64,000 nucleotides of DNA from an uncultured Bacilli bacterium (GCA_944331865.1 CALVIZ010000002.1:12227-76226), one strand, 5' to 3'; counted from the first letter of the stretch, positions 7,406 to 42,718 are shown. Notes: a model not told the origin generated them from the sequence alone. Numbers and translations are program-made.

Positions 7406-7859
7406 TTGTTTGTGCTTTTTTTGTTTCTTTAAACTCATCTAATACCAACTCCTGCTTACTAAACATAATCTTTTCTTCTTCTTTTCCTTTAGTATGATCA
7501 TATCCTAATAAATGCAATAATCCATGAACTACTAAAAATGCTAATTCTCTTTTCTCACTATGCTGATAGTCTTTTGCTTGCTTAATCATTTGGGGAATAG
7601 ATATGTATATCTCCCCAAGTTGCCTTATATTATAACAAATTTTGTTGTTATCTTCAAATGCAAATGATAATACATCTGTCGTTTTATCTATTCCACGATA
7701 TTTTTTGTTTAATTCATGCATTAAGTCATCATCTATTAATACTATACTTAAATTGGCTGATTTAACTTTTTCAAGTTTTAATGTCCTTTTTATTATTTTG
7801 TCTAAATAACTACAATCTTTGCCATAACCATATTCATCTACTATTTTAAAATCTTTCAT
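7395..7859 (-). CDS. ybeY: Endoribonuclease YbeY (rRNA maturation factor)
   Basis: Conserved zinc-binding motif HGLLHLLGYDH. 154 aa. Confidence 0.88.
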   Translation of the reverse strand: MKDFKIVDEYGYGKDCSYLDKIIKRTLKLEKVKSANLSIVLIDDDLMHELNKKYRGIDKTTDVLSFAFEDNNKICYNIRQLGEIYISIPQMIKQAKDYQHSEKRELAFLVVHGLLHLLGYDHTKGKEEEKIMFSKQELVLDEFKETKKAQTNEF

Positions 7860-8476
7860 TAAAAACTATATACTCCCATCACACCCAATATATATATTAT
7901 CATAATTATTATAATTATTAAACAAATTATGTTGAATATGCCTTCATTTTTTATAACCCCCGGCAAATGCTTATAAATTGCACTACCACCAACATATAAT
8001 AAATATCCAAGTAACCCACCAAGAACATTAAGTATTATGTCATCAACATCAAAACTTCTTCCTATATTTAGTTGCACAAATTCAACTGTGGCACTTATTA
8101 ATAAAGATATTATAAATGGTGCTAAACAATTTTTGGGTTTTATATAACATGATACTATTAAACCAAATATTAAAAATGCTAGTATGTTTCCTCCGACATT
8201 GTAGATAAATAACCTACTACCAAATTCATATCGCATAATTTCTTGAAATGGTATTATGTTAAAACCACTCCCGGAATTCATTTCTACTTTCGTTAAAAGT
8301 TGAAATAGTAAAAATATGTAACATATTGATAACAGCATTAAAAATTCTTTGTAAAAAATTATTTTGTTGCGATGGTTTCTAAAATAAAAGAATCTAACTA
8401 AAATCATTGTAATTATAAATATTATTAATATCGGCCAGTTATCTTCTAATATTGATTTAATAGTATTTAGAAACAT
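7859..8476 (-). CDS. VanZ-like integral membrane protein
   Basis: Multi-pass membrane protein. The C-terminal motif RSFDVDDIILNVLGGLLGY resembles the VanZ family. Confidence 0.4.
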   Translation of the reverse strand: MFLNTIKSILEDNWPILIIFIITMILVRFFYFRNHRNKIIFYKEFLMLLSICYIFLLFQLLTKVEMNSGSGFNIIPFQEIMRYEFGSRLFIYNVGGNILAFLIFGLIVSCYIKPKNCLAPFIISLLISATVEFVQLNIGRSFDVDDIILNVLGGLLGYLLYVGGSAIYKHLPGVIKNEGIFNIICLIIIIIMIIYILGVMGVYSF

Positions 8477-9911: not shown

Positions 9912-9936
9912 TTAAAAGGAGAACCTTTTGTTCTCC
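9912..9936 (-). terminator. Rho-independent terminator after yqeY
   Basis: Stem AAGGAGAAC / GTTCTCCTT followed by a T-run on the minus strand. Confidence 0.6.
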
Positions 9937-10377
9937 TTAACTTAATTTTTCTTTTACTAAACTACTAACTAATGACATATCAGCATTTTTAGATGCAAGA
10001 ACTTCATTTAAACGCTTCATAACTTTGCCCATTTCTTTAATACCTTCAGGCTTAATTTCACATATTACTTCCGCTACTATTTTTTCTATGTCTTCTTTAC
10101 TCATTTCTTCTGGTAAATAACTAGCTAAAATATTTATTTCTTGCTCTAAATCTTTTACAGAATCCATTTTATTATATTTTTCATATTCTAAAATTGAATC
10201 TTTTCTTAATTTTACTTGTTTTTTTATTACGCTAGATATCTCACTATCTTCTAGTTCATGCTTTTTAGATATTTGTTCTAATTGTAATGCACTTTTTAAC
10301 ATTCTTAGTACGGAAAGTTTAAAAGTATCATGCTCTTTCATAGCTGCTTTTAAATCATTATTAATTTTTTCTAACAT
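9937..10377 (-). CDS. yqeY: GatB/YqeY domain protein
   Basis: N-terminus MLEKINNDLKAAMKEHD...LSVLRMLKSA is typical of YqeY. 146 aa. Immediately downstream of rpsU. Confidence 0.85.
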   Translation of the reverse strand: MLEKINNDLKAAMKEHDTFKLSVLRMLKSALQLEQISKKHELEDSEISSVIKKQVKLRKDSILEYEKYNKMDSVKDLEQEINILASYLPEEMSKEDIEKIVAEVICEIKPEGIKEMGKVMKRLNEVLASKNADMSLVSSLVKEKLS

Positions 10378-10379
10378 TA

Positions 10380-10565
10380 TTAGCCTCTATTCTTTTTGTG
10401 AGAATTTTTAATTCCTTCTTTAATTTCATTTCTTCTTTTTACACCAGGTTTTTCATAGTGTTTTCTTTTTTTAATTTCAGAAGGGACTCCACTGCGGGCA
10501 AATTTTGCCTTAAATTTTTTCAATGCTAAATCAACATCACCATTTTTTACTACTACTTTTGTCAT
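10380..10565 (-). CDS. rpsU: 30S ribosomal protein S21
   Basis: MTKVVVKNGDVDLALKKFKAKFARSGV...HYEKPGVKRR matches S21. The start was trimmed to the ATG at 10563-10565, which is preceded by AAGGGAGGG. Confidence 0.92.
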   Translation of the reverse strand: MTKVVVKNGDVDLALKKFKAKFARSGVPSEIKKRKHYEKPGVKRRNEIKEGIKNSHKKNRG

Positions 10566-10599: not shown

Positions 10600-10628
10600 A
10601 TTATAACATCAGTAGTATTGCATTTCAA
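10600..10628 (-). promoter_or_regulatory. Sigma-A promoter of rpsU: TTGAAA-N17-TATAAT
   Basis: The minus strand reads ttgaaatgcaatactactgatgttataat. -35 is at 10623-10628 and -10 at 10600-10605, with a 17-nt spacer. Confidence 0.7.
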
Positions 10629-10650: not shown

Positions 10651-10791
10651 TTATTTTATTAATGACCGAAGATTTCTACCAACTGCTTTTCCTATTTCAA
10701 ATATCGTTTCACAAATTCCTGCTAGGGCTGTAATTAATGCTCCTGAAATTCCACCAACTACTGCTGATAATTCTTTATTGCTTAAATACAC
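10651..10791 (-). CDS. Double-glycine-leader bacteriocin precursor peptide 1. Leader (V/M)YLSNKELSAVVGG, core ISGALITALAGICETIFEIGKAVGRNLRSLIK.
   Basis: Hand-translated from the minus strand. RBS AAGGAGG, 5-nt spacer, GTG start with an in-frame stop immediately upstream. The leader matches the LSxxELxxIxGG consensus. It lies directly downstream of a C39-ABC exporter. Not in the ORF track. Confidence 0.55.
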   Translation of the reverse strand: MYLSNKELSAVVGGISGALITALAGICETIFEIGKAVGRNLRSLIK

Positions 10792-10804
10792 TTAGACCTC
10801 CTTT

Positions 10805-10924
10805 CTATTTTCCAAAAAAACCACAAAATACACCGAGAAGAAATACTGCTATGCCACCAATTGCTAACCACGCTCCAGTAGATCCTCCTTCTATTTGCAT
10901 AAGTTCTTTTTTGTTAAGTACCAT
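10805..10924 (-). CDS. Double-glycine-leader bacteriocin precursor peptide 2. Leader MVLNKKELMQIEGG, core STGAWLAIGGIAVFLLGVFCGFFGK.
   Basis: RBS AGGAGG, then ATG at 10922-10924. Canonical GG leader. The core is Gly-rich and hydrophobic with GxxxG motifs, typical of class II bacteriocins. Not in the ORF track. Confidence 0.7.
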   Translation of the reverse strand: MVLNKKELMQIEGGSTGAWLAIGGIAVFLLGVFCGFFGK

Positions 10925-10934
10925 TTTACCTCCT

Positions 10935-11081
10935 TTACATTGGACATAAAGTATTGGTTATTATCTTTTTTAGCTTAGTACCAAATGCTACTCCTAAACC
11001 ATAAATCTTTACACATACATTTAATACAGCATTAAAAAAACCACCTTTTACTTCCTGTAATTCTTTGTTCGTTAATTTCAT
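10935..11081 (-). CDS. Double-glycine-leader bacteriocin precursor peptide 3. Leader MKLTNKELQEVKGG, core FFNAVLNVCVKIYGLGVAFGTKLKKIITNTLCPM.
   Basis: RBS AAGGAGG, then ATG at 11079-11081. Canonical leader. The core is cationic with two Cys. Not in the ORF track. Confidence 0.7.
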   Translation of the reverse strand: MKLTNKELQEVKGGFFNAVLNVCVKIYGLGVAFGTKLKKIITNTLCPM

Positions 11082-11089
11082 AATCCTCC

Positions 11090-11224
11090 TTAATTTTTAT
11101 TACATTTTAAGTTACTTAATCCGTGGATGGTACCACTAACAAATAACATTAATACTACTTTAAAAGCTATTTTTATAATACCACCACCAGATATTTTACT
11201 TAATTTTTCTTTGTTTAATATCAT
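11090..11224 (-). CDS. Double-glycine-leader bacteriocin precursor peptide 4. Leader MILNKEKLSKISGG, core GIIKIAFKVVLMLFVSGTIHGLSNLKCNKN.
   Basis: RBS GGAGG, then ATG at 11222-11224, directly abutting the stop of the upstream 137-aa gene (TAAATG). GG leader. Not in the ORF track. Confidence 0.65.
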   Translation of the reverse strand: MILNKEKLSKISGGGIIKIAFKVVLMLFVSGTIHGLSNLKCNKN

Positions 11225-11638
11225 TTAACCTCCAGATATTATCTTTTTTATTTTGGTTGCCACTTTTTCTTTATCATAGTATATAGTTGTTTCTATTATA
11301 CTATTTTCCTTAAAATCATTTTTTAAATTTAATATTACTTCTTGATAATTTATATTATTACTTAAAAGTATCTCACTTATATTTTCTATTTCATAATTAT
11401 ATTTTTTATCTTCAATTACTAAATACTCTCCCTTTATTATAACTTCTGAATTTTCTATAGGTATATTTAATACTAATTTGCTATTTTTAATAAAACCCTT
11501 GGTATTATAAGCACTATATATTTTAATATTTAATATATATATAGTTATAATTATTACAATCGCTGTTATAATAATAAAAATGTGATATAAATGATATTTG
11601 ATATTTATTAATTCATTATAACTCATCTTATGCTCCAA
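11225..11638 (-). CDS. Single-pass membrane accessory protein of the bacteriocin locus. Possibly HlyD-like or an immunity protein; function unassigned.
   Basis: 137 aa. N-terminal TM helix (IFIIITAIVIIITIYIL) followed by an extracytoplasmic domain. Overlaps the ABC exporter stop and abuts peptide 4. Confidence 0.45.
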   Translation of the reverse strand: MEHKMSYNELINIKYHLYHIFIIITAIVIIITIYILNIKIYSAYNTKGFIKNSKLVLNIPIENSEVIIKGEYLVIEDKKYNYEIENISEILLSNNINYQEVILNLKNDFKENSIIETTIYYDKEKVATKIKKIISGG

Positions 11639-13682
11639 TAGATATTATCTTATCAAATAAATTATCATGATTTTTATGAGTAACACATATTATAGTCTTG
11701 TTTTTAAAGTAGTTTTTTATGTTTTTCATTATTTTTTCCTCCAAACTGTAGTCTACTTCACTTAATGCTTCATCTAATATGAGAATTTGAAAATTGTTAA
11801 GTAAGGCTCGTGCTAAAATAATTCTTTGCTTTTCACCCCCTGAAATGTTTGTGCCTTCATTACTTATGCCCGTGTCATATCGCATAGGTTTATTTTCTAT
11901 TATTTTATCAACTGCACAAATTTTACAAACATCAAAAAATTTTTTTTCGGTTACAAAACGATCCAATATTATATTGTTTTTTATAGTATCCGTAATTATA
12001 TTTTCATTTTGATTTATATATAAAACATTTTTTCTTATCGTTTTTATACTTAAATCTTTTATGTTAATATCCCCAATTAATATGTTACCTTGATAATCAG
12101 TAATATACTTATCTAATATTTTACATAATGTCGATTTGCCACAACCACTATGTCCTTTAAATAATACTAATTCCCCCCTTTCTATTTCTAAATTAAAATT
12201 GTTAAAAATATTATCTATGTGATTATAGGAATAAGTTAAATTACTGATTTTTATGTTATTATTCTTTAAATAACTACTTTTCCCCATCCTTTCTTGTTCA
12301 TTACTTAAAAAATCATTTATCTTGTTGTATGTTGCCTTTAAGAAATTATATTTGGGAATATTATCTATACAATTTTTTATCGGATTTAAAAAGAAACCTA
12401 ATAATGTGTTAAATGTTATCAATGCTGTTATCTCTAATTTGTTATTATATATTAAATAAAACCCCCATGTATTTATAATAAAAAATCCTATTTCACTAAT
12501 CCAATTCTTGATAGTCTTCTCTTTATTTAAAAAACTACTTACTAAATAATTATCATATAAAAAATTAGTTAAATTTTCTTCTATTTTCTTTAATCTAGAA
12601 TCTGTTATATTTAAGTTTTTAATACTATTTATCATATTTATGTTTTCTAATAATGTATTATTAAATTCTGACTCTAATTCAATATTTTGATATGCCTTTT
12701 TAAAAATTAATTTACTTGTTATCAATCCTACTATTAAATATAAAATTAAACATAGAAAAAGGGCTAAAAAAAGATTTTTACTTATATTTAACAATAAAGG
12801 CACCGAGGCAAACATCAATAAAAAATCTAAAATACATGATATAAATATATCTGTAAATAAATTTTTAATATTGGCAAGTTCATTTACTCTTGTTATTATC
12901 TCACCACTTGTTCTACTTGATATTACCTCTAAAGGGAGATTAAAAATATGTTTTATAAATGATGCATTTAATAAGCAATCTATGTTTTTATTTAGATGAT
13001 TTTCTAAATTGTTTCTTAAATATGTAAATATTAATTTTGATATCGTTATCATTCCAAATATGATAACAAATATCTTTATATATAATATGTAATAATTACT
13101 TGTAATACTATTTATCATTATCTGAAAATAATAACTACTAGTTATTGTAAAAATCATCATAAATATGCTCATTATTATTATGGTTACAAATAACTTTTTT
13201 TCTTTAAATAATATATCTAAAAATATATTAAATAAATTATTTTCTTTTTTGAATGTTATAATTTTACTTTTAGGATAAAATATTAATAATACTTTGCTCC
13301 ATTCTTGATAAAATTCTTGTTTAGTTTTTACAACTTTACCTTTAGCTGGATCCATTAATATTACTTTATTTTTGGTAATTTTGTAAATAACTACATAATG
13401 TTGCATACCATTTTTTAAATTAATATGAGCTATCGCTGGTAGTCTAATTTTAGAATCTTCTAAAGAATTAACTTTAATTCCTATGCTATCAAATCCATAC
13501 TTTTTACTAGCTTCAATAATATTTAAAGCACTTGTTCCTTCATTTGATGCTTTAACATCTAACCTGATTTTCTCTAAAGATACATAACCATTGTAATACT
13601 CAATTATCGATGCTAATGAACATACTCCACAGTCTTTAAAGTCTCTTTGTCTAATTATTTTCATATCCTTTTCCCCCTTCAC
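11628..13682 (-). CDS. Bacteriocin/peptide-processing ABC transporter with an N-terminal C39 peptidase domain
   Basis: The N-terminus carries a catalytic Cys in QRDFKDCGVCSLASI and a His in GMQHYVVIY. Six TM segments. The C-terminal ABC ATPase has Walker A GHSGCGKST, signature ISGGEKQR and Walker B ILILDEA. Confidence 0.88.
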   Translation of the reverse strand: MKGEKDMKIIRQRDFKDCGVCSLASIIEYYNGYVSLEKIRLDVKASNEGTSALNIIEASKKYGFDSIGIKVNSLEDSKIRLPAIAHINLKNGMQHYVVIYKITKNKVILMDPAKGKVVKTKQEFYQEWSKVLLIFYPKSKIITFKKENNLFNIFLDILFKEKKLFVTIIIMSIFMMIFTITSSYYFQIMINSITSNYYILYIKIFVIIFGMITISKLIFTYLRNNLENHLNKNIDCLLNASFIKHIFNLPLEVISSRTSGEIITRVNELANIKNLFTDIFISCILDFLLMFASVPLLLNISKNLFLALFLCLILYLIVGLITSKLIFKKAYQNIELESEFNNTLLENINMINSIKNLNITDSRLKKIEENLTNFLYDNYLVSSFLNKEKTIKNWISEIGFFIINTWGFYLIYNNKLEITALITFNTLLGFFLNPIKNCIDNIPKYNFLKATYNKINDFLSNEQERMGKSSYLKNNNIKISNLTYSYNHIDNIFNNFNLEIERGELVLFKGHSGCGKSTLCKILDKYITDYQGNILIGDINIKDLSIKTIRKNVLYINQNENIITDTIKNNIILDRFVTEKKFFDVCKICAVDKIIENKPMRYDTGISNEGTNISGGEKQRIILARALLNNFQILILDEALSEVDYSLEEKIMKNIKNYFKNKTIICVTHKNHDNLFDKIISIGA

Positions 13683-13743
13683 TATATATCTTAAAACAAT
13701 TAATTAATATATCTTTTTTATTTTTTAATTTTTTTCACAAAAA

Positions 13744-13770
13744 AAATTGTGTAAATACACAACTTTTAAA
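13744..13770 (-). terminator. Putative terminator after the 234-aa gene
   Basis: Hairpin TTGTGTA-aa-TACACAA followed by a T-run on the minus strand. Confidence 0.4.
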
Positions 13771-13787
13771 AACATTGATTACTATTA

Positions 13788-14492
13788 TTAATTATTTCTT
13801 GGCTTTCTAACTTTTTGTAATATTAATGAGCCAGTTTCTGCTCTTTTTATAACTTCTTCTTTTGTTCCTGATAATAATCCAGTAGATATGCTTTCTTCAA
13901 TATCACTAATATTTATACTTTTTAAATAATCTATATCAAATAATTCTAATAAGTCAGAAATGTCTTTAGATATAAGAGAATCATATTTACCTAGGCGTAA
14001 TAATTGTAATAAAAATAAACTTGGTGGTAAATTAAGCATACTACTTATTTGCCAGAAGCCCTGATTAGATTGAAATTCAACTTTTGCTTGTTCTAATAAA
14101 AGTAACCTATAAATATCATGATCTAAGCCATCTTCTTTAGAATATGCAAAAACTCTTTTTGGCTCTAATGCATCATAATATCCTGCTGCAAAGCTTTCTA
14201 AAAAATCCTTTTTTCTTTGACTTTCAATGTCTGAATCTTGAATAGGATATATTTGAGAATAATATCCAGTTTCTAAAACTGTACTATCATCGTAGTTTAA
14301 AGAATAATATTCCATATCTGTTTTTCTATTAAATTCTTCAAGAGTTCTTACATTATTTGTTTTTAAGCCATAAAATAAATTACTATTTTTATGGCTTTGT
14401 AAAACATCTTTTTTATATTTTGCTACCTTATTCTCTTTTTCACCAAATCTATATATATCTATTACTCCATCTTTTTTATCATATATAAGCAT
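13788..14492 (-). CDS. Hypothetical protein (234 aa)
   Basis: Long ORF with no recognisable motifs. Lies between the bacteriocin exporter and the tRNA. Confidence 0.5.
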   Translation of the reverse strand: MLIYDKKDGVIDIYRFGEKENKVAKYKKDVLQSHKNSNLFYGLKTNNVRTLEEFNRKTDMEYYSLNYDDSTVLETGYYSQIYPIQDSDIESQRKKDFLESFAAGYYDALEPKRVFAYSKEDGLDHDIYRLLLLEQAKVEFQSNQGFWQISSMLNLPPSLFLLQLLRLGKYDSLISKDISDLLELFDIDYLKSINISDIEESISTGLLSGTKEEVIKRAETGSLILQKVRKPRNN

Positions 14493-14563: not shown

Positions 14564-15460
14564 TTAATTTTTACTTATATTTCCATCTAAAGTCCTTACC
14601 AATTGTTGAACATCATCATTTCCAATTCGAGTAGTCGTGATTATAAATTCATGAGAATCCCACATATAATATATACCTGGTGCTTCATAACTTTCTTTAA
14701 ACGTTGATGTTTTTAAATCTATATATAATGAGTAGCCATTACTTCTACTACTAATTTCTAAATTTTTATCCTGTTGATATAAAACTGCAATTCTTTTTGA
14801 AATCACTCTATAAAAATCTAATAATTCGTTTTTTATTGATTTAAGTCCAATAATTTCAGCTAAATCAATATTAAATAAATATTTTTCAATATCTTTGCAT
14901 TGCATTGGCCATTGATTAAAATTAATTAGATCGCTTACATATTTATTCCATATAACATTAACAATTTTTGCAGCAATGTGTTTTCCAACTATTAAAGCAT
15001 TTTCATCAACTTCAATAGTTTCATCTATTTTTCTTTTTGGTTGTCCTGATAAAAATTCACCTATTAACTTTCTTATTTCTGCAGTTTTTCCTTTCCCTAA
15101 TTTTCCATCAGACATATAATATGTATTTAAACAACCCAAATCATAATCACTAAATCTATAATTAGCTTTTATAATATAGTCATCATCATCTTTACTATAC
15201 ATCATTTCCATATGTGGTAAAAACATTTCTTTTGGATTCCATCTATGCCAATCATGTTCAGCTTTTCTTTCAAAAAATCTTTGAAATAATTGTTCACTTT
15301 CATACAATATATCTTGAACTGGCATTTTACTTTCAAAAAAATGCAAAAATTCTATAAATTCTGATGCTAAAAATTGTGGTTCATATCCATTTTTAACTTT
15401 AAATATCATATACTCTACTATTAAATCATCTACTGTTAAATTATGTTCCGAATTAATCAT
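14564..15460 (-). CDS. Hypothetical protein (298 aa)
   Basis: Long ORF with no recognisable motifs. Confidence 0.5.
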   Translation of the reverse strand: MINSEHNLTVDDLIVEYMIFKVKNGYEPQFLASEFIEFLHFFESKMPVQDILYESEQLFQRFFERKAEHDWHRWNPKEMFLPHMEMMYSKDDDDYIIKANYRFSDYDLGCLNTYYMSDGKLGKGKTAEIRKLIGEFLSGQPKRKIDETIEVDENALIVGKHIAAKIVNVIWNKYVSDLINFNQWPMQCKDIEKYLFNIDLAEIIGLKSIKNELLDFYRVISKRIAVLYQQDKNLEISSRSNGYSLYIDLKTSTFKESYEAPGIYYMWDSHEFIITTTRIGNDDVQQLVRTLDGNISKN

Positions 15461-15577: not shown

Positions 15578-15654
15578 TGGTGTCCCTGACAAGAATTGAA
15601 CTTGTGACCCCTACCTTCGGAGGGTAGTACTCTATCCAACTGAGCTACAGGGAC
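15578..15654 (-). tRNA. tRNA-Arg (anticodon CCG)
   Basis: The minus strand reads GTCCCTGTAGCTCAGTTGGATAGAGTACTACCCTCCGAAGGTAGGGGTCACAAGTTCAATTCTTGTCAGGGACACCA. 7-bp acceptor stem GTCCCTG/CAGGGAC, anticodon loop CTCCGAA, T-loop GTTCAATTC, encoded CCA. A terminator hairpin lies downstream at 15541-15566. Confidence 0.85.
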
Positions 15655-18767: not shown

Positions 18768-18995
18768 TCCTCCTTATAAAAAAAGAATGATACCAAAAGG
18801 AGTGCATATAGCACGGTACCATCCTTAAATTATCTTAATTATCTTAACGCGATTAACGAAATAACTTACTATAATTTCAGTTATTTAACTCCCGAGTGAT
18901 TTATATTTGTTTAATTATATTCTACTTTCACCTAACTAGAACTCTCTAAATAATATTCCAAATATACATGTCTCGTTCTTCGTTTTTTTCAAAAA
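18768..18995 (-). promoter_or_regulatory. T-box riboswitch leader of ileS, with a sigma-A promoter at 18996-19024 (TTGACT-N17-TATAAT)
   Basis: The minus-strand leader contains an AGAGA stem-I motif (tagagagttctag) and a T-box sequence AATTTAAGGATGGTACCGTG close to the consensus AAUUAGGGUGGUACCGCG. This is followed by hairpin and T-run terminator elements just upstream of the RBS AAGGAGGA. Confidence 0.65.
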
Positions 18996-21953: not shown

Positions 21954-22763
21954 TTATGCAAAAGTTACTTTTAAAATGTTTTCTAAATCGAATTCAAATA
22001 TATTTGCTAAAAAATTTTTTAATTTTTCGTTTCCTTCTATTTCTTTATTGTAGATAGTTTTTAATTCTAATTGCAATTCATCACTTGCTAAAATATATAT
22101 CGCTTTTAATATTTCTCTTAATAAATAAAAATATATATCTTCTTTAACATCTTTTTTATATTGATATATTAAATTTCTTAGTGATAATTTAAATCTTTCT
22201 TTTAAAATTTTATCTTTATTTTTTTGATGATCATTATCATCTATATTGTAAAATATGTTGGCTGTATCACTAATTATATAAGTATCTGTTGGAATTGAAA
22301 AATCACTTTGTAATAATAATTCACCAATTTGAGGAATTATAAATGCTAAATAATATTTTAATTCTATAAATGGACCATTTTGACTATTATGAAGAGCAAG
22401 CATTAATTCATCTATTGTTAAATAATTATTTAATCTTCTTTCATAATCATCTATTTCCAGTCTTGAAAAAATTAAATTTGATAAACGAGTTAATATTTTT
22501 ATTGATGATTCTGATGAGTATGATACAAGAGTAATTCCTAAAGGTATATATTTTTTAATATCTAATATTTTGTTAAGTAATTCATGCATTTCAAAATCTC
22601 TTAAGTTATTTAATATTGCTTCTTCCTTTTTTAACAAATAATTTAATATTATTAATAATTTATTATAATCTGGAGAATCTTTTTTATTACTTTTATCTAA
22701 ACTTTCTAAGTCATCAAATATTATTTTCAATTTTTGTTCTAGTCGTATTAATTTATCTACCAT
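21954..22763 (-). CDS. Hypothetical alpha-helical protein (269 aa)
   Basis: ORF. Appears paralogous in architecture to the adjacent 273-aa protein. Confidence 0.45.
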   Translation of the reverse strand: MVDKLIRLEQKLKIIFDDLESLDKSNKKDSPDYNKLLIILNYLLKKEEAILNNLRDFEMHELLNKILDIKKYIPLGITLVSYSSESSIKILTRLSNLIFSRLEIDDYERRLNNYLTIDELMLALHNSQNGPFIELKYYLAFIIPQIGELLLQSDFSIPTDTYIISDTANIFYNIDDNDHQKNKDKILKERFKLSLRNLIYQYKKDVKEDIYFYLLREILKAIYILASDELQLELKTIYNKEIEGNEKLKNFLANIFEFDLENILKVTFA

Positions 22764-22764
22764 A

Positions 22765-23586
22765 TTATCTTCCTACCTTTATGCTTGCATATATAGGAAT
22801 TTCTTTATCACTATTAATATTTGCTAATATTTCTTCTATATATCTTTTAGCCTCTTCATAATTTTTATTAGATAATAATTGATCTAATAAATTTAAAAAT
22901 AATTCTTTATTATCAGCTATTGTAATTATGGCTCTAATAAAACTAATTTGATAATATATTAAATATGAATCAAGTTTACGAGTTATATATACTAATAATA
23001 TTTTTAAATGTTCTTTAAATGATTCAAATAATATTTTGTCTTTTTCTTCATTAGTTATATATCCTAAATCCATATATAATCTAATATTGATTATAGGATT
23101 TTTGTTAATTTCAAAATTGTTACTTATTAATTGTGCTTCTAAATCTTTGCCAATATTAAAATATGAATAATAAATGGATACAATTAGTTGAGATGCAATT
23201 TCTGGATGCATTTTCATTATTTTATCTAATATAGCTAATGAAATTAAAAAGATATCTTGTTGAATTGTTGCATTAATGTCTATTTTATTATCTACACTAT
23301 TTATAAATGCTAATTTGTTTTTTAAATGGTCTAGTAACATATTTTCATAAGGATTTAATTTTTTACTTAATTCTTCTATTTTTTTAAATATACTGTCTAT
23401 ATTAAATTCTTCTAGTAATTGCGATATTAAAGCATTTTCTTTAGTTGTTTTTTCTTTTATTTTAGCAGTTATCTCTAAAAATAAACCACTTTCTTTTTTT
23501 CCGGCAATTTCTAAATCAATTAAATCATCATAATATTCATTAATTTGTGCTCCTATTTTTAATAACATATTTATTATTTTATTCAT
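22765..23586 (-). CDS. Hypothetical alpha-helical protein (273 aa)
   Basis: ORF adjacent to its apparent paralog, separated by 1 nt. Confidence 0.45.
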   Translation of the reverse strand: MNKIINMLLKIGAQINEYYDDLIDLEIAGKKESGLFLEITAKIKEKTTKENALISQLLEEFNIDSIFKKIEELSKKLNPYENMLLDHLKNKLAFINSVDNKIDINATIQQDIFLISLAILDKIMKMHPEIASQLIVSIYYSYFNIGKDLEAQLISNNFEINKNPIINIRLYMDLGYITNEEKDKILFESFKEHLKILLVYITRKLDSYLIYYQISFIRAIITIADNKELFLNLLDQLLSNKNYEEAKRYIEEILANINSDKEIPIYASIKVGR

Positions 23587-36417: not shown

Positions 36418-37950
36418 TTAGTTTTTCTTACGCATTAATTTATGATCTGTATCAATTATTTCAGTTACATTATTAGTATTTCTTGATTTTATTGTTCCTA
36501 TATTTTTCATATTCAAATTATCTATTACCTCAGCATCTGTTAAAACACAAGTAAACAAATCATAACAACAAATTGTTTGAAGATTTATTCTAGCTCCTCT
36601 ACTACCTGTAAAATCTATGCTATATATGTTTACCCCATCAAATGGGCCGATAAATTCTACTTCTGAGAATTTACATTCTTTTAAATTTCCGTCATAAACT
36701 GTTTGAGGATTTATTTTGGCTCCTTTGCTTTCTGTAAAATCTGCATGATTTATTTTTGCTCCATCAAATGGGCCAATAAATTCTATTCCTGAGAATTTAC
36801 TCCATATTAAATCTTTTTCAAAAACTGTTTGAGGATTTATTTTAGCTCCTTTACTCCCTGTAAAATCTGAGTAACTTATATAAACTCCATCAAATGGGCC
36901 ATCAAATTCTATTCCTGAAAATTTGCAATTATATAAATATTTTTTATAAATTGTTTGAGGATTTATTTTAGCTCCTTTGCTTCCTGTAAAATCTGAATTA
37001 GATATTATTACTCCATCAAATGGACCTATAAATTCTACTCCTGAAAATGTACATCCATTTAAATTTTTTTCAAAAACTGTTTGAGGATTTAATTTTACTC
37101 CCTTAAATCCAGTAAAATTAAGTCCACGTATATCTACATTATCAAAAGATACATTACTAAAATCAATCTTTTTCAATAATTTCTCAGACATTTTAAATTT
37201 TCTACAAGGTATTCTATCTGCAAATAGAGTCTCTGTAGAAGATTTATCGAATTCTATAACATCCGTAACAAATAAAATATCTGGATTAGGTAAAGTTATA
37301 TATTCACCATCTTTTAATTTTTCTAAAACTTCTATTAGGTTTTGTATTTCTATATTCATTACCTCAGCATCTGTTAAAGTAGACAAACCATCATAATAAA
37401 CATTTTGTAGATCTACTATAGCTCCTTTACTTCCCATAAAATTTGTTTGGGATAAATGTACTCCATCAAATGGGCCGATAAATTCTACTCCTGATAATGT
37501 ACATCCTCTTAAATTTTTATCGTAAATTGTTTGAGGATTTATTTTAGCTCCTTTGCTTTCTGTAAAATTTGCACCTGCTATTTTCGCTCCATTAAACGGA
37601 CCTATAAATTCTACTCCTGATAATTCACATCCCCTTAAATCTTTATTTTGAACTGTTTGAGGATTTAATTTTACTCCCTTAAATCCAGTAAAATTAAATC
37701 CACTTATATCTACATTATCAAAAGATACATTACTAAAATCAATTTTTTTCAATAATTTCTGATTTATTACAGATGTTATTTCCCAATAATATTGCCCACA
37801 CTTTGCTATCTTTTCAAATAAAATGTGTGGATTAGATAAAGTTATATGCTTACCATCTTCTAGACTTTCTAAAATCTTTATTAATTGTTGTCTTTTAATC
37901 CGTAACCAATTTTCATATGTATTTTTTAAAATTTGATTAATATAAATCAT
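36418..37950 (-). CDS. 40-aa-repeat family protein, paralog A. A fused double module of 510 aa.
   Basis: Two complete N-domain+repeat modules are joined in one ORF. Repeats carry GVEFIGPFDG and (D/N)FTGSKGAKINPQT(V/I)Y. No signal peptide. Conserved C-terminal tail ...HKLMRKKN. Confidence 0.7.
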   Translation of the reverse strand: MIYINQILKNTYENWLRIKRQQLIKILESLEDGKHITLSNPHILFEKIAKCGQYYWEITSVINQKLLKKIDFSNVSFDNVDISGFNFTGFKGVKLNPQTVQNKDLRGCELSGVEFIGPFNGAKIAGANFTESKGAKINPQTIYDKNLRGCTLSGVEFIGPFDGVHLSQTNFMGSKGAIVDLQNVYYDGLSTLTDAEVMNIEIQNLIEVLEKLKDGEYITLPNPDILFVTDVIEFDKSSTETLFADRIPCRKFKMSEKLLKKIDFSNVSFDNVDIRGLNFTGFKGVKLNPQTVFEKNLNGCTFSGVEFIGPFDGVIISNSDFTGSKGAKINPQTIYKKYLYNCKFSGIEFDGPFDGVYISYSDFTGSKGAKINPQTVFEKDLIWSKFSGIEFIGPFDGAKINHADFTESKGAKINPQTVYDGNLKECKFSEVEFIGPFDGVNIYSIDFTGSRGARINLQTICCYDLFTCVLTDAEVIDNLNMKNIGTIKSRNTNNVTEIIDTDHKLMRKKN

Positions 37951-37979
37951 TATTATCCCTCCCTATATAAATTTCATTT

Positions 37980-38008
37980 ATATTATCAAAAAAAAGATAG
38001 GATGTCAA
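37980..38008 (-). promoter_or_regulatory. Sigma-A promoter of paralog A: TTGACA-N17-TAATAT
   Basis: The minus strand reads ttgacatcctatcttttttttgataatat, about 25 nt upstream of the RBS GGGAGGG. Confidence 0.55.
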
Positions 38009-38164
38009 TTTATAACATCTTAGCGTAATTTTTTCCTAAGTATAACATTTTAAAATTCCAAAGTTTAACATTTATAATGGTTTAAAAAAATAATTTGATA
38101 ATATTCTTTAAGAAAATATAATTGCATTTTAGAAATGGACATTATAAAGAGTACAAAAAAATTT

Positions 38165-38310
38165 TATTATTGACTTATCAAAAAAATACCTAACATTATT
38201 TGAAATCTTCCGTTTCACAACAAACAAAAAATGAGCTAGCTTAGTATTTCCTAAATTTGCTCATTTTTGCTGTCAAATTCAATTTATAACATAAAAATAT
38301 AAAAGTCAAT
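38165..38310. repeat. ~140-bp direct repeat R1, copy 1. Contains a hairpin aaaatgagc...gctcatttt.
   Basis: About 90% identical to 42800-42935. Confidence 0.7.
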
Positions 38311-38327
38311 ATAGAAGTATATAATTA

Positions 38328-39014
38328 CTAGAAGTGTTTTTTATTCCTAGTTAATTCCATTAAAACGAAACCAGGAGGAGGTGATTTTGGTTCGTAATCA
38401 TAATAGTCTATTATCTCAACATTTGTTAAAATAGACGAATTAGCATAAGATACTTTTTTCCGATCTACTATAGCCCCCTTACTGCCTGTAAAATCTGCAT
38501 ATAATAAGGTTGCACCATCAAATGGACCTATAAATTCTACTCCTGAGAATATACAGTAACTCAAATCTTTTTCAAAAACTCTTTGAGGATTTATTTTAGC
38601 TCCTTTGCTTCCTGTAAAATCTGTTTCGTATAAATATATTCCATCAAATGGGCCTATAAATTCTACTCCTGAAAATTTACATCTACTTAAATTTTGGGCA
38701 TAAACTGTTTGAGGATTTATTTTTACTCCCTTTAATTCAGTAAAATCCATCCCTCTTATATCTACATTATCAAAAGATATGTTACTAAAATCAATCTTTT
38801 TCAATAATCTCTCAGGTATTGCAAATTTCTTATAAGAACTACTTTCATTAAATAAAATATTTGCATCAGATAATGTCAAATATTTACCATCTTCTAGACT
38901 TTCTAAAATATTTATTAATTTTTGCCTTTCTGCTTTTATTCTATTATAAAACTCTAAACTATTTCTAATTCCATTTAAAGATTGACTATTGAAACTCATT
39001 ATTATTCCTCCCAT
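38328..39014 (-). CDS. 40-aa-repeat family protein, paralog B (228 aa, ~3 repeats)
   Basis: Conserved N-domain (LESLEDGKYLTLS), NPQT-containing repeats, and a divergent C-terminus. Confidence 0.65.
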   Translation of the reverse strand: MGGIIMSFNSQSLNGIRNSLEFYNRIKAERQKLINILESLEDGKYLTLSDANILFNESSSYKKFAIPERLLKKIDFSNISFDNVDIRGMDFTELKGVKINPQTVYAQNLSRCKFSGVEFIGPFDGIYLYETDFTGSKGAKINPQRVFEKDLSYCIFSGVEFIGPFDGATLLYADFTGSKGAIVDRKKVSYANSSILTNVEIIDYYDYEPKSPPPGFVLMELTRNKKHF

Positions 39015-39028
39015 TATAATTTAAATTT

Positions 39029-39057
39029 ATATTATCAAAAATAAGTTATGATGTCAA
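39029..39057 (-). promoter_or_regulatory. Sigma-A promoter of paralog B: TTGACA-N17-TAATAT
   Basis: The minus strand reads ttgacatcataacttatttttgataatat. Confidence 0.5.
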
Positions 39058-39092
39058 CTAAGTCATATTATCTTACACAATTGTCAAAATTA

Positions 39093-40151
39093 TTAATTTT
39101 TCTTCCGCATTAATTTAAAATTAGCATCAACTATCCCGGTTTCATTATTAGTATTTATTGATTTTATTGTTCCTATATTTTCTATATCCATTAGCTCAAC
39201 ATCTGTCAAAACACAAGTAGAAAAATCGTCATAATAAACTGTTTGAGAATCTATTCTAGCTCCTTTACTACCTGTAAAATTTGTTTTAGATATATTTGCC
39301 CCATCAAATTCACCGATAAATTCTACTCCTGAAAATGTACACCCACTTAAATCCTTATTTATAACTGTTTGGGGGTTTATTATAGCTCCTCTACTACCTG
39401 TAAAATTTGTTTTAGATATGTTTGCTCCATCAAACGAACCATCAAATTCTACTCCTGAAAATATACATCCACTTAAATCCCTCTTTATAACTTTTTGAGG
39501 ATTTATTCTAGCTCCCATACTGCCAGTAAAATTTGTTTTAAACAAGTATGCTCCATCAAATTCACCAATAATGCTAAAAACAGATCTCATTCCATAATCT
39601 TCAGGAATAAATATAACTCCAGATAATACGCAAAATCTAAAATCTCTATAATAAATTTTTTGGGGAGATATTAAGGCTCCTTTACTCCCTGTAAAATTTG
39701 CTCTAGATATTTTTGCTCCATCAAATGGTCCTATAAATTTTACACCAAAGAATGTACATCCTCTTAAATCTTTTTTATAAACTCTTTGAGGATCTATTCT
39801 AACTCCTTTACTACCAGCAAAATTTGTATCATACATATATGTATAATCAAATGAACCGTCAAATTCTACTCCTGAGAATGTACATCCTCTTAAATCTTGT
39901 TTATAAACTTTTTGAGGGTCTATTTTTACCCCCATATATCCAGTAAAATTAAGGCCACGTATACATACATTATCAAAAGATATATTACTGTAATCAATCT
40001 TTTTCAATAATCTTTTAGGTATTGCAATTTCCTTATAAACTTTACCATCTTCTACCTCAATTTCCTTAAATATAATATTTGGATTAGTCAAAGTTATATA
40101 TTCATCATCTTCTAAACTGTCTAAAACTTCTATTAGCATTTCTAAATTCAT
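39093..40151 (-). CDS. 40-aa-repeat family protein, paralog C (352 aa, subfamily 2 N-terminus MNLEMLIEVLDSLEDDEY)
   Basis: Repeats with (N/D)FTGS(K/M)G(A/V)RI(D/N)PQ(K/R)VY. Conserved C-terminal tail IDANFKLMRKKN. Confidence 0.65.
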   Translation of the reverse strand: MNLEMLIEVLDSLEDDEYITLTNPNIIFKEIEVEDGKVYKEIAIPKRLLKKIDYSNISFDNVCIRGLNFTGYMGVKIDPQKVYKQDLRGCTFSGVEFDGSFDYTYMYDTNFAGSKGVRIDPQRVYKKDLRGCTFFGVKFIGPFDGAKISRANFTGSKGALISPQKIYYRDFRFCVLSGVIFIPEDYGMRSVFSIIGEFDGAYLFKTNFTGSMGARINPQKVIKRDLSGCIFSGVEFDGSFDGANISKTNFTGSRGAIINPQTVINKDLSGCTFSGVEFIGEFDGANISKTNFTGSKGARIDSQTVYYDDFSTCVLTDVELMDIENIGTIKSINTNNETGIVDANFKLMRKKN

Positions 40152-40232
40152 AAGTATCTACTCCTCGTAAAATTACATTTATAATAATCACAAAACAAAA
40201 AATCAAATATTTTTTCATTAAAACTCAAGATT

Positions 40233-41132
40233 TTATTTCTTTCGCATTAATTTAAAATTAGCATCAATTAACCCAGTTTCATCATTACTATTTCTTGATT
40301 TTATTGTTCCTATATTTTCCATATTTATGTCATCAATTATCTTAGCATCTGTTAAAACACAAAGAGACAAATCATCAAAATAAACCGTTTGAAGATCTAT
40401 TTTAGCTCCTTTACTACCTGTAAAATCTGTTTCGTGTAAATATATTCCATCAAATGGGCCGATAAATTCTACTCCTGAGAATTTACATCTTCTTAAATTT
40501 CTCTTATAAACTGTTTGAGGTTCTATTCTAGCTCCTTTGCTTCCTGTAAAATCTGCTCCTTCTATTATCACTCTATCAAATGATTCAATAAATTCTACTC
40601 CTGAGAATTTACATTCACTTAAATTTCCCTTATAAACTGTTTGAGGATCTATTCTAGCTCCTTTGCTTCCTGTAAAATCTGCACCATTTATTTTCACTCC
40701 ATCAAATGGGCCGATAAATTCTACTCCTGAGAATTTACATTCACTTAAATTTTTATTGTAAATTGTTTGGGGATTTATTTTAGCTCCTTTGCTTCCTGTA
40801 AAATTTGTTTTAGATATATTTGCACCATCAAATGAGCCATCAAATAATACTCCCGATAATACACAAAAGTTAAAATCCTTGTCATAAACTGTTTGAGGAT
40901 CTATTTTTACTCCAATAAATCCAGTAAAATCAAAGCCACATATACATACATTATCAAAAGATACATTACTAAAATCAATCTTTCTCAATAATCTCTCAGG
41001 TATTGCAATTTCCTTATAAACTTTACCATCTTCTAAAACTTTTTCCTTAAATATAATATTTGGATTAGCCAAAGTTACATATTCATTATCTTTCAAACTA
41101 TCTAAAGCTTCTATTAGCTTTTCTAAATTCAT
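40233..41132 (-). CDS. 40-aa-repeat family protein, paralog D (299 aa, subfamily 2)
   Basis: Same architecture. C-terminal tail IDANFKLMRKK. Confidence 0.65.
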   Translation of the reverse strand: MNLEKLIEALDSLKDNEYVTLANPNIIFKEKVLEDGKVYKEIAIPERLLRKIDFSNVSFDNVCICGFDFTGFIGVKIDPQTVYDKDFNFCVLSGVLFDGSFDGANISKTNFTGSKGAKINPQTIYNKNLSECKFSGVEFIGPFDGVKINGADFTGSKGARIDPQTVYKGNLSECKFSGVEFIESFDRVIIEGADFTGSKGARIEPQTVYKRNLRRCKFSGVEFIGPFDGIYLHETDFTGSKGAKIDLQTVYFDDLSLCVLTDAKIIDDINMENIGTIKSRNSNDETGLIDANFKLMRKK

Positions 41133-41200
41133 ATTTTCAACTCCTCACAAAATTGCATTTATAATAATCACAAAAACAAAAATATCAAGTTTTTCATAAC

Positions 41201-42718
41201 TCAAAGCTGATTTTTATTCCGTATTAATTTATAATCAGCATCAATTAGACCAATTTCATCATTAGTAATTCTTGATTTTATTATTCCTATTTTTTCCATA
41301 TCTATGTCATCCGTTATCTCAACATCTGTTAAAACACAAAGATACAAACAATCATAATAAACCGTTCGAAGATTTATTTTAGCTCCTTTGCTTCCTGTAA
41401 AATCTAATTCGTTTAAATATATTCCATCAAATGAACCTATAAATTCTACTCCTGATAATTTACATTTTTCAAAACTATAAAGTGTTTGAGGATTTATTCT
41501 AGCTCCTTTGCTTCCTGTAAAATCTGCACCATTTATTTTCACTCCATCAAATGGGCCTATAAATTCTACTCCTGAGAATGTACATTCTTTTAAATCACTG
41601 TAAATTGTTTGAGGATTTATTTTAGCGCCTTTACTTCCTGTAAAATCTGCACCATTTATTTTCACTCTATCAAATGGGCCAATAAATTCTACGCCTGAAA
41701 ATTTGTTCCAACTTAAATCTTTTTCATAAACTGTTTGAGGATTTATTTTAGCTCCTTTGCTTCCTGTAAAATCTGCTCCTATGTAATCTGTATAACCAAA
41801 ATATACTAATTCTACTCCATCAAATGAGCCGATAAATTCTACTCCTGAGAATGTACATCCACTTAAATATTTATTGTAAATTGTTTGGGGATTTATTTTA
41901 GCTCCTTTACTTCCTGTAAAATTTGCACCAACTATTTTTGCGCCATCAAATGGGCCGATAAATTCTACTCCTGATAATATACACCATATAAATTTTTTTT
42001 CAAAAATTGTTTGAGGATTTATTTTAGCTCCTTTGCTTCCTGTAAAATCCGCTCCTTCGCTTCCTAAATCATCAAAATGTACTAAGTCCGCTCCATCAAA
42101 TGGGCCAATAAATTCTACTTCTGAAAATTTACATCCTCTTAAATTTTTTTTAAAAACGGTTTGAGGATTTATTTTAGCTCCTTTGCTTCCTGTAAAATTT
42201 GCTTTTTCTATCATTACTCCATCAAATGGACCTATAAATTCTACTCCTGAAAATTTGTTCCAACTTAAATCTTTTTCATAAACTGTTTGAGGATTTATTT
42301 TGGCTCCTTTGCTTCCTGTAAAATTTGTTCCTTCTATTATCACTCCATCAAATGGGCCGATAAATTCTACTCCTGATAATTTACACCCTCTTAAATTTTT
42401 TTTAAAAACGGTTTGAGGATTTATTTTTATTCCCTTATATCCAGTAAAATTAAATCCTCTTATGTCTACATTATCAAAAGATACATTACTAAAATCAATC
42501 TTTTTCAATAATATCTCAGGTATTGCAAATTCCCTATAAGAGTAGTTCTCATTTTCTTCAATTTCATTGAATAAAATATCTGCATTAGATAATGTTAAAT
42601 ACTTACCATCTTCTAGGCTTTCTAAAACATTTATTAGATTTTGCCTTTCAGCTTCTATTCTATTATAAAATTCTAAACTATTTCTATCTTCATTTAAAGA
42701 TTGACTATTGAAACTCAT
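41201..42718 (-). CDS. 40-aa-repeat family protein, paralog E (505 aa, ~8.5 repeats)
   Basis: N-domain as in paralog B. Eight near-identical repeats (KFSGVEFIGPFDG...ADFTGSKGAKINPQTVY). C-terminal tail IDADYKLIRNKN. Confidence 0.7.
   Translation of the reverse strand: MSFNSQSLNEDRNSLEFYNRIEAERQNLINVLESLEDGKYLTLSNADILFNEIEENENYSYREFAIPEILLKKIDFSNVSFDNVDIRGFNFTGYKGIKINPQTVFKKNLRGCKLSGVEFIGPFDGVIIEGTNFTGSKGAKINPQTVYEKDLSWNKFSGVEFIGPFDGVMIEKANFTGSKGAKINPQTVFKKNLRGCKFSEVEFIGPFDGADLVHFDDLGSEGADFTGSKGAKINPQTIFEKKFIWCILSGVEFIGPFDGAKIVGANFTGSKGAKINPQTIYNKYLSGCTFSGVEFIGSFDGVELVYFGYTDYIGADFTGSKGAKINPQTVYEKDLSWNKFSGVEFIGPFDRVKINGADFTGSKGAKINPQTIYSDLKECTFSGVEFIGPFDGVKINGADFTGSKGARINPQTLYSFEKCKLSGVEFIGSFDGIYLNELDFTGSKGAKINLRTVYYDCLYLCVLTDVEITDDIDMEKIGIIKSRITNDEIGLIDADYKLIRNKNQL

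Follow-up and report, generated by a model that had tools for sequence, protein, structure and literature searches.

A putative class IIb-like two-peptide module with a miniature accessory protein upstream of rpsU in uncultured Bacilli

Introduction

Do four small genes next to a peptide exporter in an uncultured gut bacterium encode bacteriocins, and do their products act singly or in pairs? The question is raised by a locus in a 64,000-nucleotide stretch of DNA from an uncultured Bacilli bacterium (GCA_944331865.1, CALVIZ010000002.1:12227-76226), analyzed at its full length and referred to here as the window, in which an original prediction made from the sequence alone had placed a class II bacteriocin locus. 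A C39-peptidase ATP-binding cassette (ABC) exporter gene, an accessory gene and four peptide genes (pep4, pep3, pep2 and pep1), together called the module, lie on the minus strand directly upstream of rpsU and yqeY (Table 1). The features originally described, those of a double-glycine-leader peptide locus with such an exporter and accessory protein, were all confirmed in the sequence. The module very likely processes and exports pairs of double-glycine-leader peptides, and on balance we read the locus as a two-peptide bacteriocin system that is class IIb-like and belongs to a new, uncharacterized family. That the pairs are antimicrobial is favored with some reserve, and the points on either side are weighed below.

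Four small genes encode double-glycine-leader peptides

A six-frame scan of the window for the leader motif with an in-frame start and a 20-60-residue tail returned exactly these four peptide open reading frames (ORFs). In Markov-1 simulated windows, which served as a control, the chance expectation was 0.01 such ORFs per window, and 0 when a ribosome binding site (RBS) was required. Each of the four begins with a 14-residue double-glycine leader of the form (M)xLxxKELxxIxGG, and an RBS (AGGAGG or GGAGG) is placed 4-8 nt ahead of each start (GGAGG for pep4, AGGAGG for pep3 and pep2, and AGGAGG 5 nt ahead of the GTG of pep1); in both respects the original prediction was right. All module genes are co-directional and tightly coupled, with spacers of 8-13 nt between the peptide genes.

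These ORFs had been described as missed by ORF calling, but every one of the public contigs inspected (10/10), which carry an identical ABC protein, has calls for the whole set of four. The correct word is unannotated: where the module proteins are named at all in public records, they are given as ‘hypothetical protein’ only. For example, pep1 is present in NCBI as MFR5857350.1, a ‘hypothetical protein’ from a ‘Bacilli bacterium’ metagenome-assembled genome, and is found on 121 contigs.

Orthologous loci (numbered with the prefix L) were collected through a search with the accessory protein (28 homologue clusters), four look-ups of encoding contigs and a scan of GTDB species representatives (9 species), and a separate metagenome scan was anchored on YqeY and not on the module. 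The genomes of these relatives carry the names ‘uncultured Bacilli’, ‘uncultured Tenericutes UMGS910’ and Candidatus Onthocola, the last classified by NCBI under Bacilli incertae sedis. Peptide order and sequence are conserved across more than 10 species, so the small ORFs are indeed kept in relatives. The doubtful GTG start of pep1 is supported as well, because all the pep1 orthologues examined carry an ATG where the window has the GTG, and the original prediction of this gene as real therefore stands.

The ratio of non-synonymous to synonymous substitution rates (dN/dS, pooled Nei-Gojobori), which is a rough figure here with dS near saturation (0.6-1.35), lies between 0.2 and 0.5 for the peptide genes: 0.22 for pep2, 0.38 for pep1, 0.40 for pep3 and 0.53 for pep4, next to 0.34 for the accessory gene, 0.24 for yqeY and 0.11 for rpsU. 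The most conserved of the four is pep2 (core mean identity 65%, dN/dS 0.20, 9 species); the pep1 core has a dN/dS of 0.31, and pep4 orthologues are present in 8 species. The four small ORFs are real genes under purifying selection.

The peptide cores form two paralogous pairs

The four cores had been considered mutually dissimilar, which does not survive a comparison of family profiles from which the leader had been removed. With hhalign on these core-only profiles, pep1 and pep3 match at a probability of 95% (E 3.7e-8) and pep2 and pep4 at 65% (E 6e-5), with cross-pair controls at 0.2%. The cores of pep1 and pep3, referred to as A-type, are amphipathic and have a consensus like ...IF/YxxGxxxGxxhRRL..., and those of pep2 and pep4, referred to as B-type, are transmembrane (TM)-like with a consensus like ...FhxGxxxG(F/Y/L)xNPxKC. 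Core profile scores are consistent with this division (37 bits for pep4 with the B-core model, 51.6 bits for pep3 with the A-core model). The cores are thus two paralogous pairs. The genes follow one another in the order B-A-B-A (pep4, pep3, pep2, pep1), from which we conclude that a two-peptide unit underwent tandem duplication.

All four cores contain a GxxxG motif, which takes the form of (GTIHG in pep4, GVAFG in pep3, GVFCG in pep2 and GKAVG in pep1) and is invariant in the family alignments. For pep1, the hydrophobic moment reaches a maximum of 0.71, and its AlphaFold2 model (pLDDT 82) consists of a leader helix at residues 5-12, a break at the double glycine and a single core helix at residues 14-45. 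The predicted mature pep4 has a mass of 3259 Da and the predicted mature pep3 one of 3718 Da, each with a net charge of +4; the masses predicted for mature pep2 and pep1 are 2532 and 3329 Da.

The B-A unit is kept in about 25 loci. Peptide copy number differs between species, with four in some, three in others (L012, L017, L018) and two in L019. Minimal modules consist of one B gene followed by one A gene (L019, L023-L028, L034, L036, L037, L105-L108).

Tail cysteines co-occur in neighboring B and A peptides

The tails of pep4 (...NLKCNKN) and pep3 (...NTLCPM) have one cysteine each, as in other pairs of what we call the ancestral type. In 28 neighboring B/A pairs, a tail cysteine is found in both partners of 16 and in neither partner of 12, and there are no discordant pairs; the naive Fisher test gives p = 3e-8, a value to be read with the pairs being non-independent. 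At least four separate co-losses are implied, in L022, in the L020/L018 lineage, in L106/L107 and in the whole pep2/pep1 duplicate. The pattern also allowed an advance prediction, that the cysteine-less A peptides P0054 and P0055 would have cysteine-less B partners, and this held in contigs L106 and L107. This is the strongest evidence here that neighboring B and A peptides would work together, and the co-occurrence suggests that pep4 and pep3, as the ancestral-type pair, are linked by a disulfide between the chains; the predicted mass of such a heterodimer is ~6975 Da. The cysteine of pep2 is different in kind, being invariant and inside the GxxxG motif (GVFCG), with no conserved partner cysteine in pep1.

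The exporter and its miniature accessory protein

The exporter has the three domains of a peptidase-containing ABC transporter (PCAT), with Pfam matches to Peptidase_C39 (PF03412, 1e-36), ABC_membrane (PF00664, 6e-24) and ABC_tran (PF00005, 8e-27). It had been given as 684 aa, a length that counts from an upstream GTG at 13682; the ATG, used by homologues and in public gene calls, gives 678 aa. Among NCBIfam models it scores 408 bits with TIGR01193 (bacteriocin_ABC; curated cut-off 523.85) and 343 bits with NF045998 (Mbov_0121 family; curated cut-off 500), and because it falls below both cut-offs we class it, by the curated rule, as a divergent PCAT outside these two families. Its nearest solved relatives are pneumococcal ComA (8hf7, E 6e-90) and PCAT1 (4ry2, E 1e-83).

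Active C39 domains have a catalytic Cys, His and Asp and an oxyanion Gln, which distinguishes them from the inactive C39-like domain of HlyB. In this case, Q6 (the oxyanion Gln), C11 (in DCG), the His of QHYVV and the Asp of MDP align with the catalytic Q, C, H and D of ComA (phmmer), and with these residues in register the protease should be active. The motifs of the nucleotide-binding domain (NBD) are also visible in the translation, namely GHSGCGKST (Walker A), ISGGEKQR (signature) and ILILDEA (Walker B).

The exporter stop codon is separated by 1 nt from the ATG of the accessory gene. The length of 137 aa first proposed for the accessory protein counts from an upstream TTG, and homologues and public calls use the ATG (133 aa). 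Its AlphaFold2 model, built with 15 homologues (pLDDT 86), has an N-terminal TM helix and a beta-barrel domain; when the protein was compared with membrane fusion proteins (MFPs), the N-terminal anchor and the MFP beta-barrel domain were both present. At 133 aa it is too short for the alpha-helical hairpin or the lipoyl domain of the HlyD family. There is no Pfam match to HlyD, nor to any other family, with HAS-barrel reaching merely E 0.05, and scans against PHROGs and PADLOC gave no match. We therefore refer to it as a mini-MFP, and the model points to a miniature counterpart of the HlyD-type adaptors (ComB, LcnD) of bacteriocin exporters.

The only curated model to match the mini-MFP is NF045999 (MAG1140 family), at 22.6 bits with a cut-off of 35 (protein residues 10-131 on positions 2-125 of 126), and just 7 of 60 accessory-family members match it at E<1e-3. 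A HMMER search of 1.84 billion cluster representatives returned 132 clusters at E<=1e-10, a number that rises to 345 at E<=1e-3, with a length of 125-150 aa in nearly all, and no named proteins came up with a mini-MFP profile of 60 sequences; the family is sizeable and uncharacterized. The accessory gene is translationally coupled both to the ABC gene and to pep4, the latter through the TAAATG junction that had been predicted. Members of the close clade have an accessory protein with a C-terminal Gly-Gly, whose codons GGA GGT (11225-11230) also serve the first of the peptide genes as its Shine-Dalgarno sequence; distant homologues lack this terminal GG.

Comparison with known peptide export systems

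Class IIb bacteriocins, such as lactococcin G, plantaricin EF/JK, enterocin 1071 and the lactobin A/cerein 7B family (TIGR03949), need both peptides in about equal amounts for optimal antimicrobial activity. The module resembles them in encoding two different small cationic or hydrophobic peptides side by side, in the 14-residue double-glycine leaders and the GxxxG motif in the helical cores of both peptides, and in having a C39 ABC exporter and an accessory protein in the same cluster. It differs in that no immunity gene is adjacent, in the tandem duplication of the two-peptide unit, and in being vertically inherited beside rpsU, where class IIb loci are on plasmids or in variable regions. 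A further difference is that the paired C-terminal cysteines suggest a covalent heterodimer. To our knowledge, no class IIb example with a disulfide-linked heterodimer has been described, and a literature text search for disulfide-linked two-peptide bacteriocins returned nothing relevant.

Bacteriocin models recognize the precursors to different degrees. Scores of the four leaders with TIGR01847 (bacteriocin signal) are 14.6-16.9 bits, and the cut-off of 15.7 is reached by pep3 and pep2. With TIGR03949, pep3 scores 21.7 bits (cut-off 21.5) and pep2 15.9, pep1 and pep4 being unreported, and the matches cover the leader and ~20 core residues; 17 of 35 orthologues match this model at E<0.01 (10/17 B-type and 7/18 A-type; best E 8.8e-7). 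Weaker matches to the lactococcin G alpha and beta models recur among the orthologues. The threshold of PF10439 (Bacteriocin_IIc, 27.1 bits) is not reached by pep2 (20.9, E 3.6e-4), pep4 (16.1) or pep3 (14.9), and pep1 has no match. The core sequences were not found in searchable literature, and two-peptide systems are not dealt with in a 2026 preprint on class II bacteriocins of the gut.

Like ComAB, BlpAB and LcnCD, the module has an exporter that is a full-length homologue of ComA and, directly after the ABC gene, an accessory gene whose product has an MFP beta-barrel fold. ComB and LcnD are ~450 aa long, whereas the accessory protein here is 133 aa, a TM helix and one beta-barrel domain, and has no Pfam HlyD match. 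The Mycoplasma pair NF045998/NF045999 is among the closest curated models for the ABC protein and supplies the only model for the accessory protein, which points to an ABC and small-accessory architecture common to low-GC Bacilli and Mollicutes, although both module proteins score below the curated cut-offs. No function is published for either Mbov_0121 or MAG1140 in the literature that we searched, where a locus tag is mentioned merely in passing. PCAT1/CtA of Clostridium thermocellum is similar in that a PCAT has a small double-glycine-leader cargo encoded nearby, but the CtA core is unrelated, and no mini-MFP partner or two-peptide arrangement has been described for it. Taken as a whole, the module is no fundamental departure from PCAT-dependent class II peptide systems.

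Table 1 Coordinates of the module and neighboring features in the window
Feature	Position	Strand	Description
terminator	9914-9938		−12.1 kcal/mol, z −3.65, then UUUU
yqeY	9937-10377	−	PF09424 3e-42
rpsU (ribosomal protein S21)	10380-10565	−	PF01165 1.7e-17, TIGR00030; invariable downstream neighbor of the module in the clade
rpsU promoter	10600-10628	−	TTGAAA-17-TATAAT, extended −10 TG
pep1	10651-10791	−	A-type precursor, 46 aa, GTG start; leader (M)YLSNKELSAVVGG; 32-aa core with GKAVG
pep2	10805-10924	−	B-type precursor, 39 aa; leader MVLNKKELMQIEGG; 25-aa core WLAIGGIAVFLLGVFCGFFGK
pep3	10935-11081	−	A-type (amphipathic) precursor, 48 aa; leader MKLTNKELQEVKGG; 34-aa core, GVAFG, tail Cys (LCPM)
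pep4	11090-11224	−	B-type (hydrophobic) precursor, 44 aa; leader MILNKEKLSKISGG; 30-aa core, GTIHG, tail Cys (KCNKN)
accessory protein (mini-MFP)	11225-11626	−	133 aa from ATG; N-terminal TM helix, then beta-barrel domain
ABC exporter, PCAT/AMS type	11628-13664	−	678 aa from ATG; C39 peptidase, 6-TM domain, nucleotide-binding domain
ABC 5′ region	13665-13700	−	conserved block TATATAGTGAAGGGGG
terminator-like hairpin and U-run	13739-13767	−	−8.9 kcal/mol, z −3.0, then UUUUUUUU; ends upstream orf234 unit
orf234	13788-14492	−	234 aa, predicted soluble
orf298	14564-15460	−	298 aa, predicted soluble; beside tRNA-Arg
tRNA-Arg(CCG)	15578-15654		

The module is kept beside rpsU in a broad clade

The locus had been described as inserted into rpsU-yqeY housekeeping synteny. 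It is upstream of rpsU and not between rpsU and yqeY, and no insertion signature was found. The exporter, accessory and B/A peptide genes are directly upstream of rpsU-yqeY in about 20 loci, and the order ABC, mini-MFP, peptides, rpsU, yqeY is found in every close relative. In the scan anchored on YqeY, all relatives with a YqeY of 62-70% identity (L025-L028) have ABC, mini-MFP, B, A and rpsU, and the same arrangement is present in the distant contigs L034, L036 and L037, in which YqeY is ~46% and the ABC protein ~34% identical; L106 also has the module beside rpsU. The flanks on the upstream side are different, with ileS-tRNA-Arg in the window, PriA-LemA-DUF2207 in L014 and SpoIIIAH-GerE in L024.

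GC content and GC skew across the locus are the same as those of its neighbors, with no compositional anomaly. Integrase and transposase genes are absent, and the only direct or inverted repeats around the locus are AT-rich matches of the kind that arise by chance. The shared site in relatives, with a divergence that tracks that of the housekeeping genes, shows the module to be an old chromosomal resident, vertically inherited beside rpsU and occasionally lost, and not a recent insertion. It is dispensable, because it is absent upstream of rpsU in L030 and L032 (both with frr in its place), in L033 and in L035, and is decaying in L044. In the latter (L044 2800-5630), the ABC and accessory genes upstream of rpsU are fragmented and the B gene is lost, and the A peptide gene is intact with its RBS retained. 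The more distant members L105, L107 and L108 are not beside rpsU.

Transcription signals around the module

The hairpin at 13739-13767 marks the 5′ boundary of the module transcription unit, and equivalents are placed ahead of the ABC gene in related species. An exporter promoter had been proposed at ~13683-13745, coordinates that we do not endorse: there is no convincing −35/−10 pair for the ABC gene, a promoter scan covering 6 kb having given nothing above 9/12 at this place. What does stand out is a 16-nt block, TATATAGTGAAGGGAG (~13670-13690), 8-12 nt ahead of the ABC ATG, which is kept down to 52% ABC identity and has equivalents in L012, L015, L016, L025 and L027. The block is conserved beyond the need of an RBS alone. 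It could be a −10-like element with a Shine-Dalgarno sequence, or a regulatory site.

The best sigma-70 match in the 6 kb is the rpsU promoter (11/12), which is conserved in all 18 related loci. Its −35 box (10628) starts 22 nt past the pep1 stop codon, a shorter distance than the 60 bp first reported. The 85-nt spacer between pep1 and rpsU contains no terminator and is unstructured (−3.8 kcal/mol, z +0.8), and the first convincing terminator downstream of the module comes after yqeY; with the terminators so placed, read-through from the peptide operon into rpsU-yqeY is plausible. In L026, a terminator-like hairpin is present in the spacer ahead of rpsU. In two other loci, GC-richer spacers of 190-250 nt are found between the A gene and the rpsU promoter (L025 5626-5812 and L037 5518-5764); these fold strongly (−27.6 and −46.5 kcal/mol) and have no Rfam match. 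A scan with Rfam found no RNA family inside the locus in the window.

Proposed mechanism and points against it

In the mechanism that we propose, the four precursors would be translated from one tightly coupled transcript starting past the terminator at ~13740. The C39 domain would recognize the amphipathic leader helix and cut after Gly-Gly, and the transporter would export the 25-34-residue cores, helped by the membrane-anchored 133-aa mini-MFP. Outside the cell, the hydrophobic product of each B gene would pair with that of the adjacent A gene (pep4 with pep3, pep2 with pep1) via GxxxG helix-helix packing, to which a C-terminal interchain disulfide is probably added in the ancestral-type pair pep4+pep3. 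The paired peptides would then permeabilize the membranes of competitors.

Several observations weigh against a bacteriocin function. The matches to bacteriocin models are mostly driven by the leader, covering the leader and a Gly-rich stretch. In a profile search the cores matched no characterized bacteriocin and no solved two-peptide bacteriocin structure, and the best PDB match of the peptides is the CtA leader, at E 0.18. The locus has also been passed down vertically for a long time in one position next to the gene of a ribosomal protein, and selection on it is purifying, which is unusual for antagonism loci, as these tend to be patchy and fast-evolving. Lastly, class IIb operons normally carry an immunity gene beside the peptide genes, and none that is conserved with the module was found inside or beside it in about 25 loci, in agreement with the absence of a dedicated immunity gene noted originally.

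The candidates that had been named for immunity do not fill this gap. For the accessory protein, the modeled MFP fold makes an immunity protein proper unlikely, and it may double as one. The two upstream ORFs, orf234 and orf298, are not supported as immunity genes; both are predicted to be soluble and neither is conserved with the module, and orf298 is a strain-level indel. It accounts for a ~1-kb presence/absence difference directly 3′ of tRNA-Arg, being missing in the near-identical L006 and L007, and no homologues were found outside the window's own species. The only homologue of orf234 is a 227-aa protein in the nearest species (L011). Differences in orf234 between strains are mostly non-synonymous (13 nt/9 aa in L008, 9 nt/8 aa in L005, next to 1-4 nt/0 aa for the ABC gene), which indicates relaxed or diversifying selection. 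Neither ORF has a Pfam, NCBIfam, PHROG or PADLOC match. In L107, a multi-TM ORF (518-1477) is found directly after the A gene and could be the immunity gene of that lineage; the window has no equivalent.

Alternative readings

The alternative that survives best, although we consider it unlikely, is that the B/A heterodimers are not weapons but a lineage-conserved factor acting on the producer or its kin, such as a membrane-active signal or one linked to the envelope or to sporulation, with expression tied to rpsU-yqeY. This would fit a module that stays 5′ of rpsU down to a YqeY identity of ~46% while the outer flanks are rearranged, and that has no terminator between pep1 and the rpsU promoter in the window. 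It would also fit the lack of a conserved immunity gene and a purifying selection on pep2 and pep1 that is as strong as that on yqeY. However, the module is lost in four related loci and decaying in a fifth and is thus not essential, and in L105, L107 and L108 it is not beside rpsU at all. Furthermore, rpsU keeps its own strong promoter everywhere, with a terminator-like hairpin before it in L026, and the number of peptides varies from two to four among species, as expected for a trait in an arms race. Cationic peptides of 25-34 aa with GxxxG motifs and paired genes are, moreover, traits of pore-forming two-peptide bacteriocins.

A broader form of this thought is doubtful too. It would make the module a widespread uncharacterized family, with at least 132 divergent mini-MFP clusters, in which a PCAT and a minimal MFP export a disulfide-linked heterodimer of a TM-like and an amphipathic peptide that is not a conventional bacteriocin. 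Kept 5′ of rpsU-yqeY in a wide clade of uncultured gut Bacilli of low GC content, with no immunity gene, the module would then supply a membrane-active factor, conserved and exported, and the expression of this factor would be coupled to that of ribosomal protein S21.

It is improbable that the four products are independent one-peptide (class IId-like) bacteriocins that share one exporter and form no obligate pairs. Each gene does have its own RBS and leader, an A-type gene without a B partner is found in the three loci with three peptides (L012, L017, L018), and L044 has only A. Against this are the strict alternation of B and A and the minimal module, which is always one B and one A, as well as the perfect co-occurrence of tail cysteines in neighboring partners and the GxxxG motif in every core.

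A far more remote reading is that the peptides are pheromones for quorum sensing, similar to ComC or BlpC, which leave the cell through a ComAB-like transporter. It draws on ComA as the best solved relative of the exporter and on weak leader-level matches to the ComC and VP1 pheromone models, but these matches are confined to the leader, and the cores are long TM-like or amphipathic GxxxG helices, unlike pheromones. No histidine kinase or response regulator was found in the window neighborhood, or adjacent to the module in the ~25 related loci. Finally, a recently acquired mobile bacteriocin island inserted into a housekeeping block, for which the upstream tRNA-Arg and two unknown ORFs, one a strain-level indel, might speak, can be dismissed as highly improbable, given that the variable ORFs are outside the conserved module, that all module-bearing relatives share the site with a divergence tracking the housekeeping genes, and that GC content and skew are as in the neighbors, with no real flanking repeats, integrase or transposase.

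Significance of a two-peptide reading

If the peptides are bacteriocins, as we favor, they would represent two new two-peptide families from uncultured gut Bacilli of very low GC content (~26%). The correlated tail cysteines predict a disulfide-linked two-peptide bacteriocin, which, if true, would add a new structural variant to class IIb. An unusually small system of four components, with an adaptor of 133 aa instead of ~450 aa, is attractive for heterologous peptide secretion. As the mini-MFP family has no Pfam model and its NCBIfam relative is distant, genome mining that relies on such models could under-annotate loci of this kind. The absence of a conserved immunity gene raises the question of how producers avoid killing themselves, and of whether the peptides are weapons.

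Other observations in the window and related loci

Skipping-rope RNAs (RF02924, 52-56 bits) were found in L012 (8549-8636 and 9090-9172) and L015 (6398-6485), where they adjoin genes inserted downstream of yqeY that encode PBECR-domain and YhcG/DUF1016 proteins; they are absent from the window. A T-box leader (18795-18989, minus strand; 93.1 bits, gathering score 93) is upstream of ileS. Five paralogous ORFs arranged in tandem (36418-42718, minus strand; 228-510 aa) share a motif like ...LESLEDGKYxTLSNP, and two more adjacent paralogues of 269 and 273 aa (21954-23586, minus strand) have no Pfam match in public gene calls. A VanZ-like protein with five TM helices (7859-8476, minus strand) is encoded between yqfD and ybeY, the position of phoH in Bacillus subtilis, and is kept there in all related loci.

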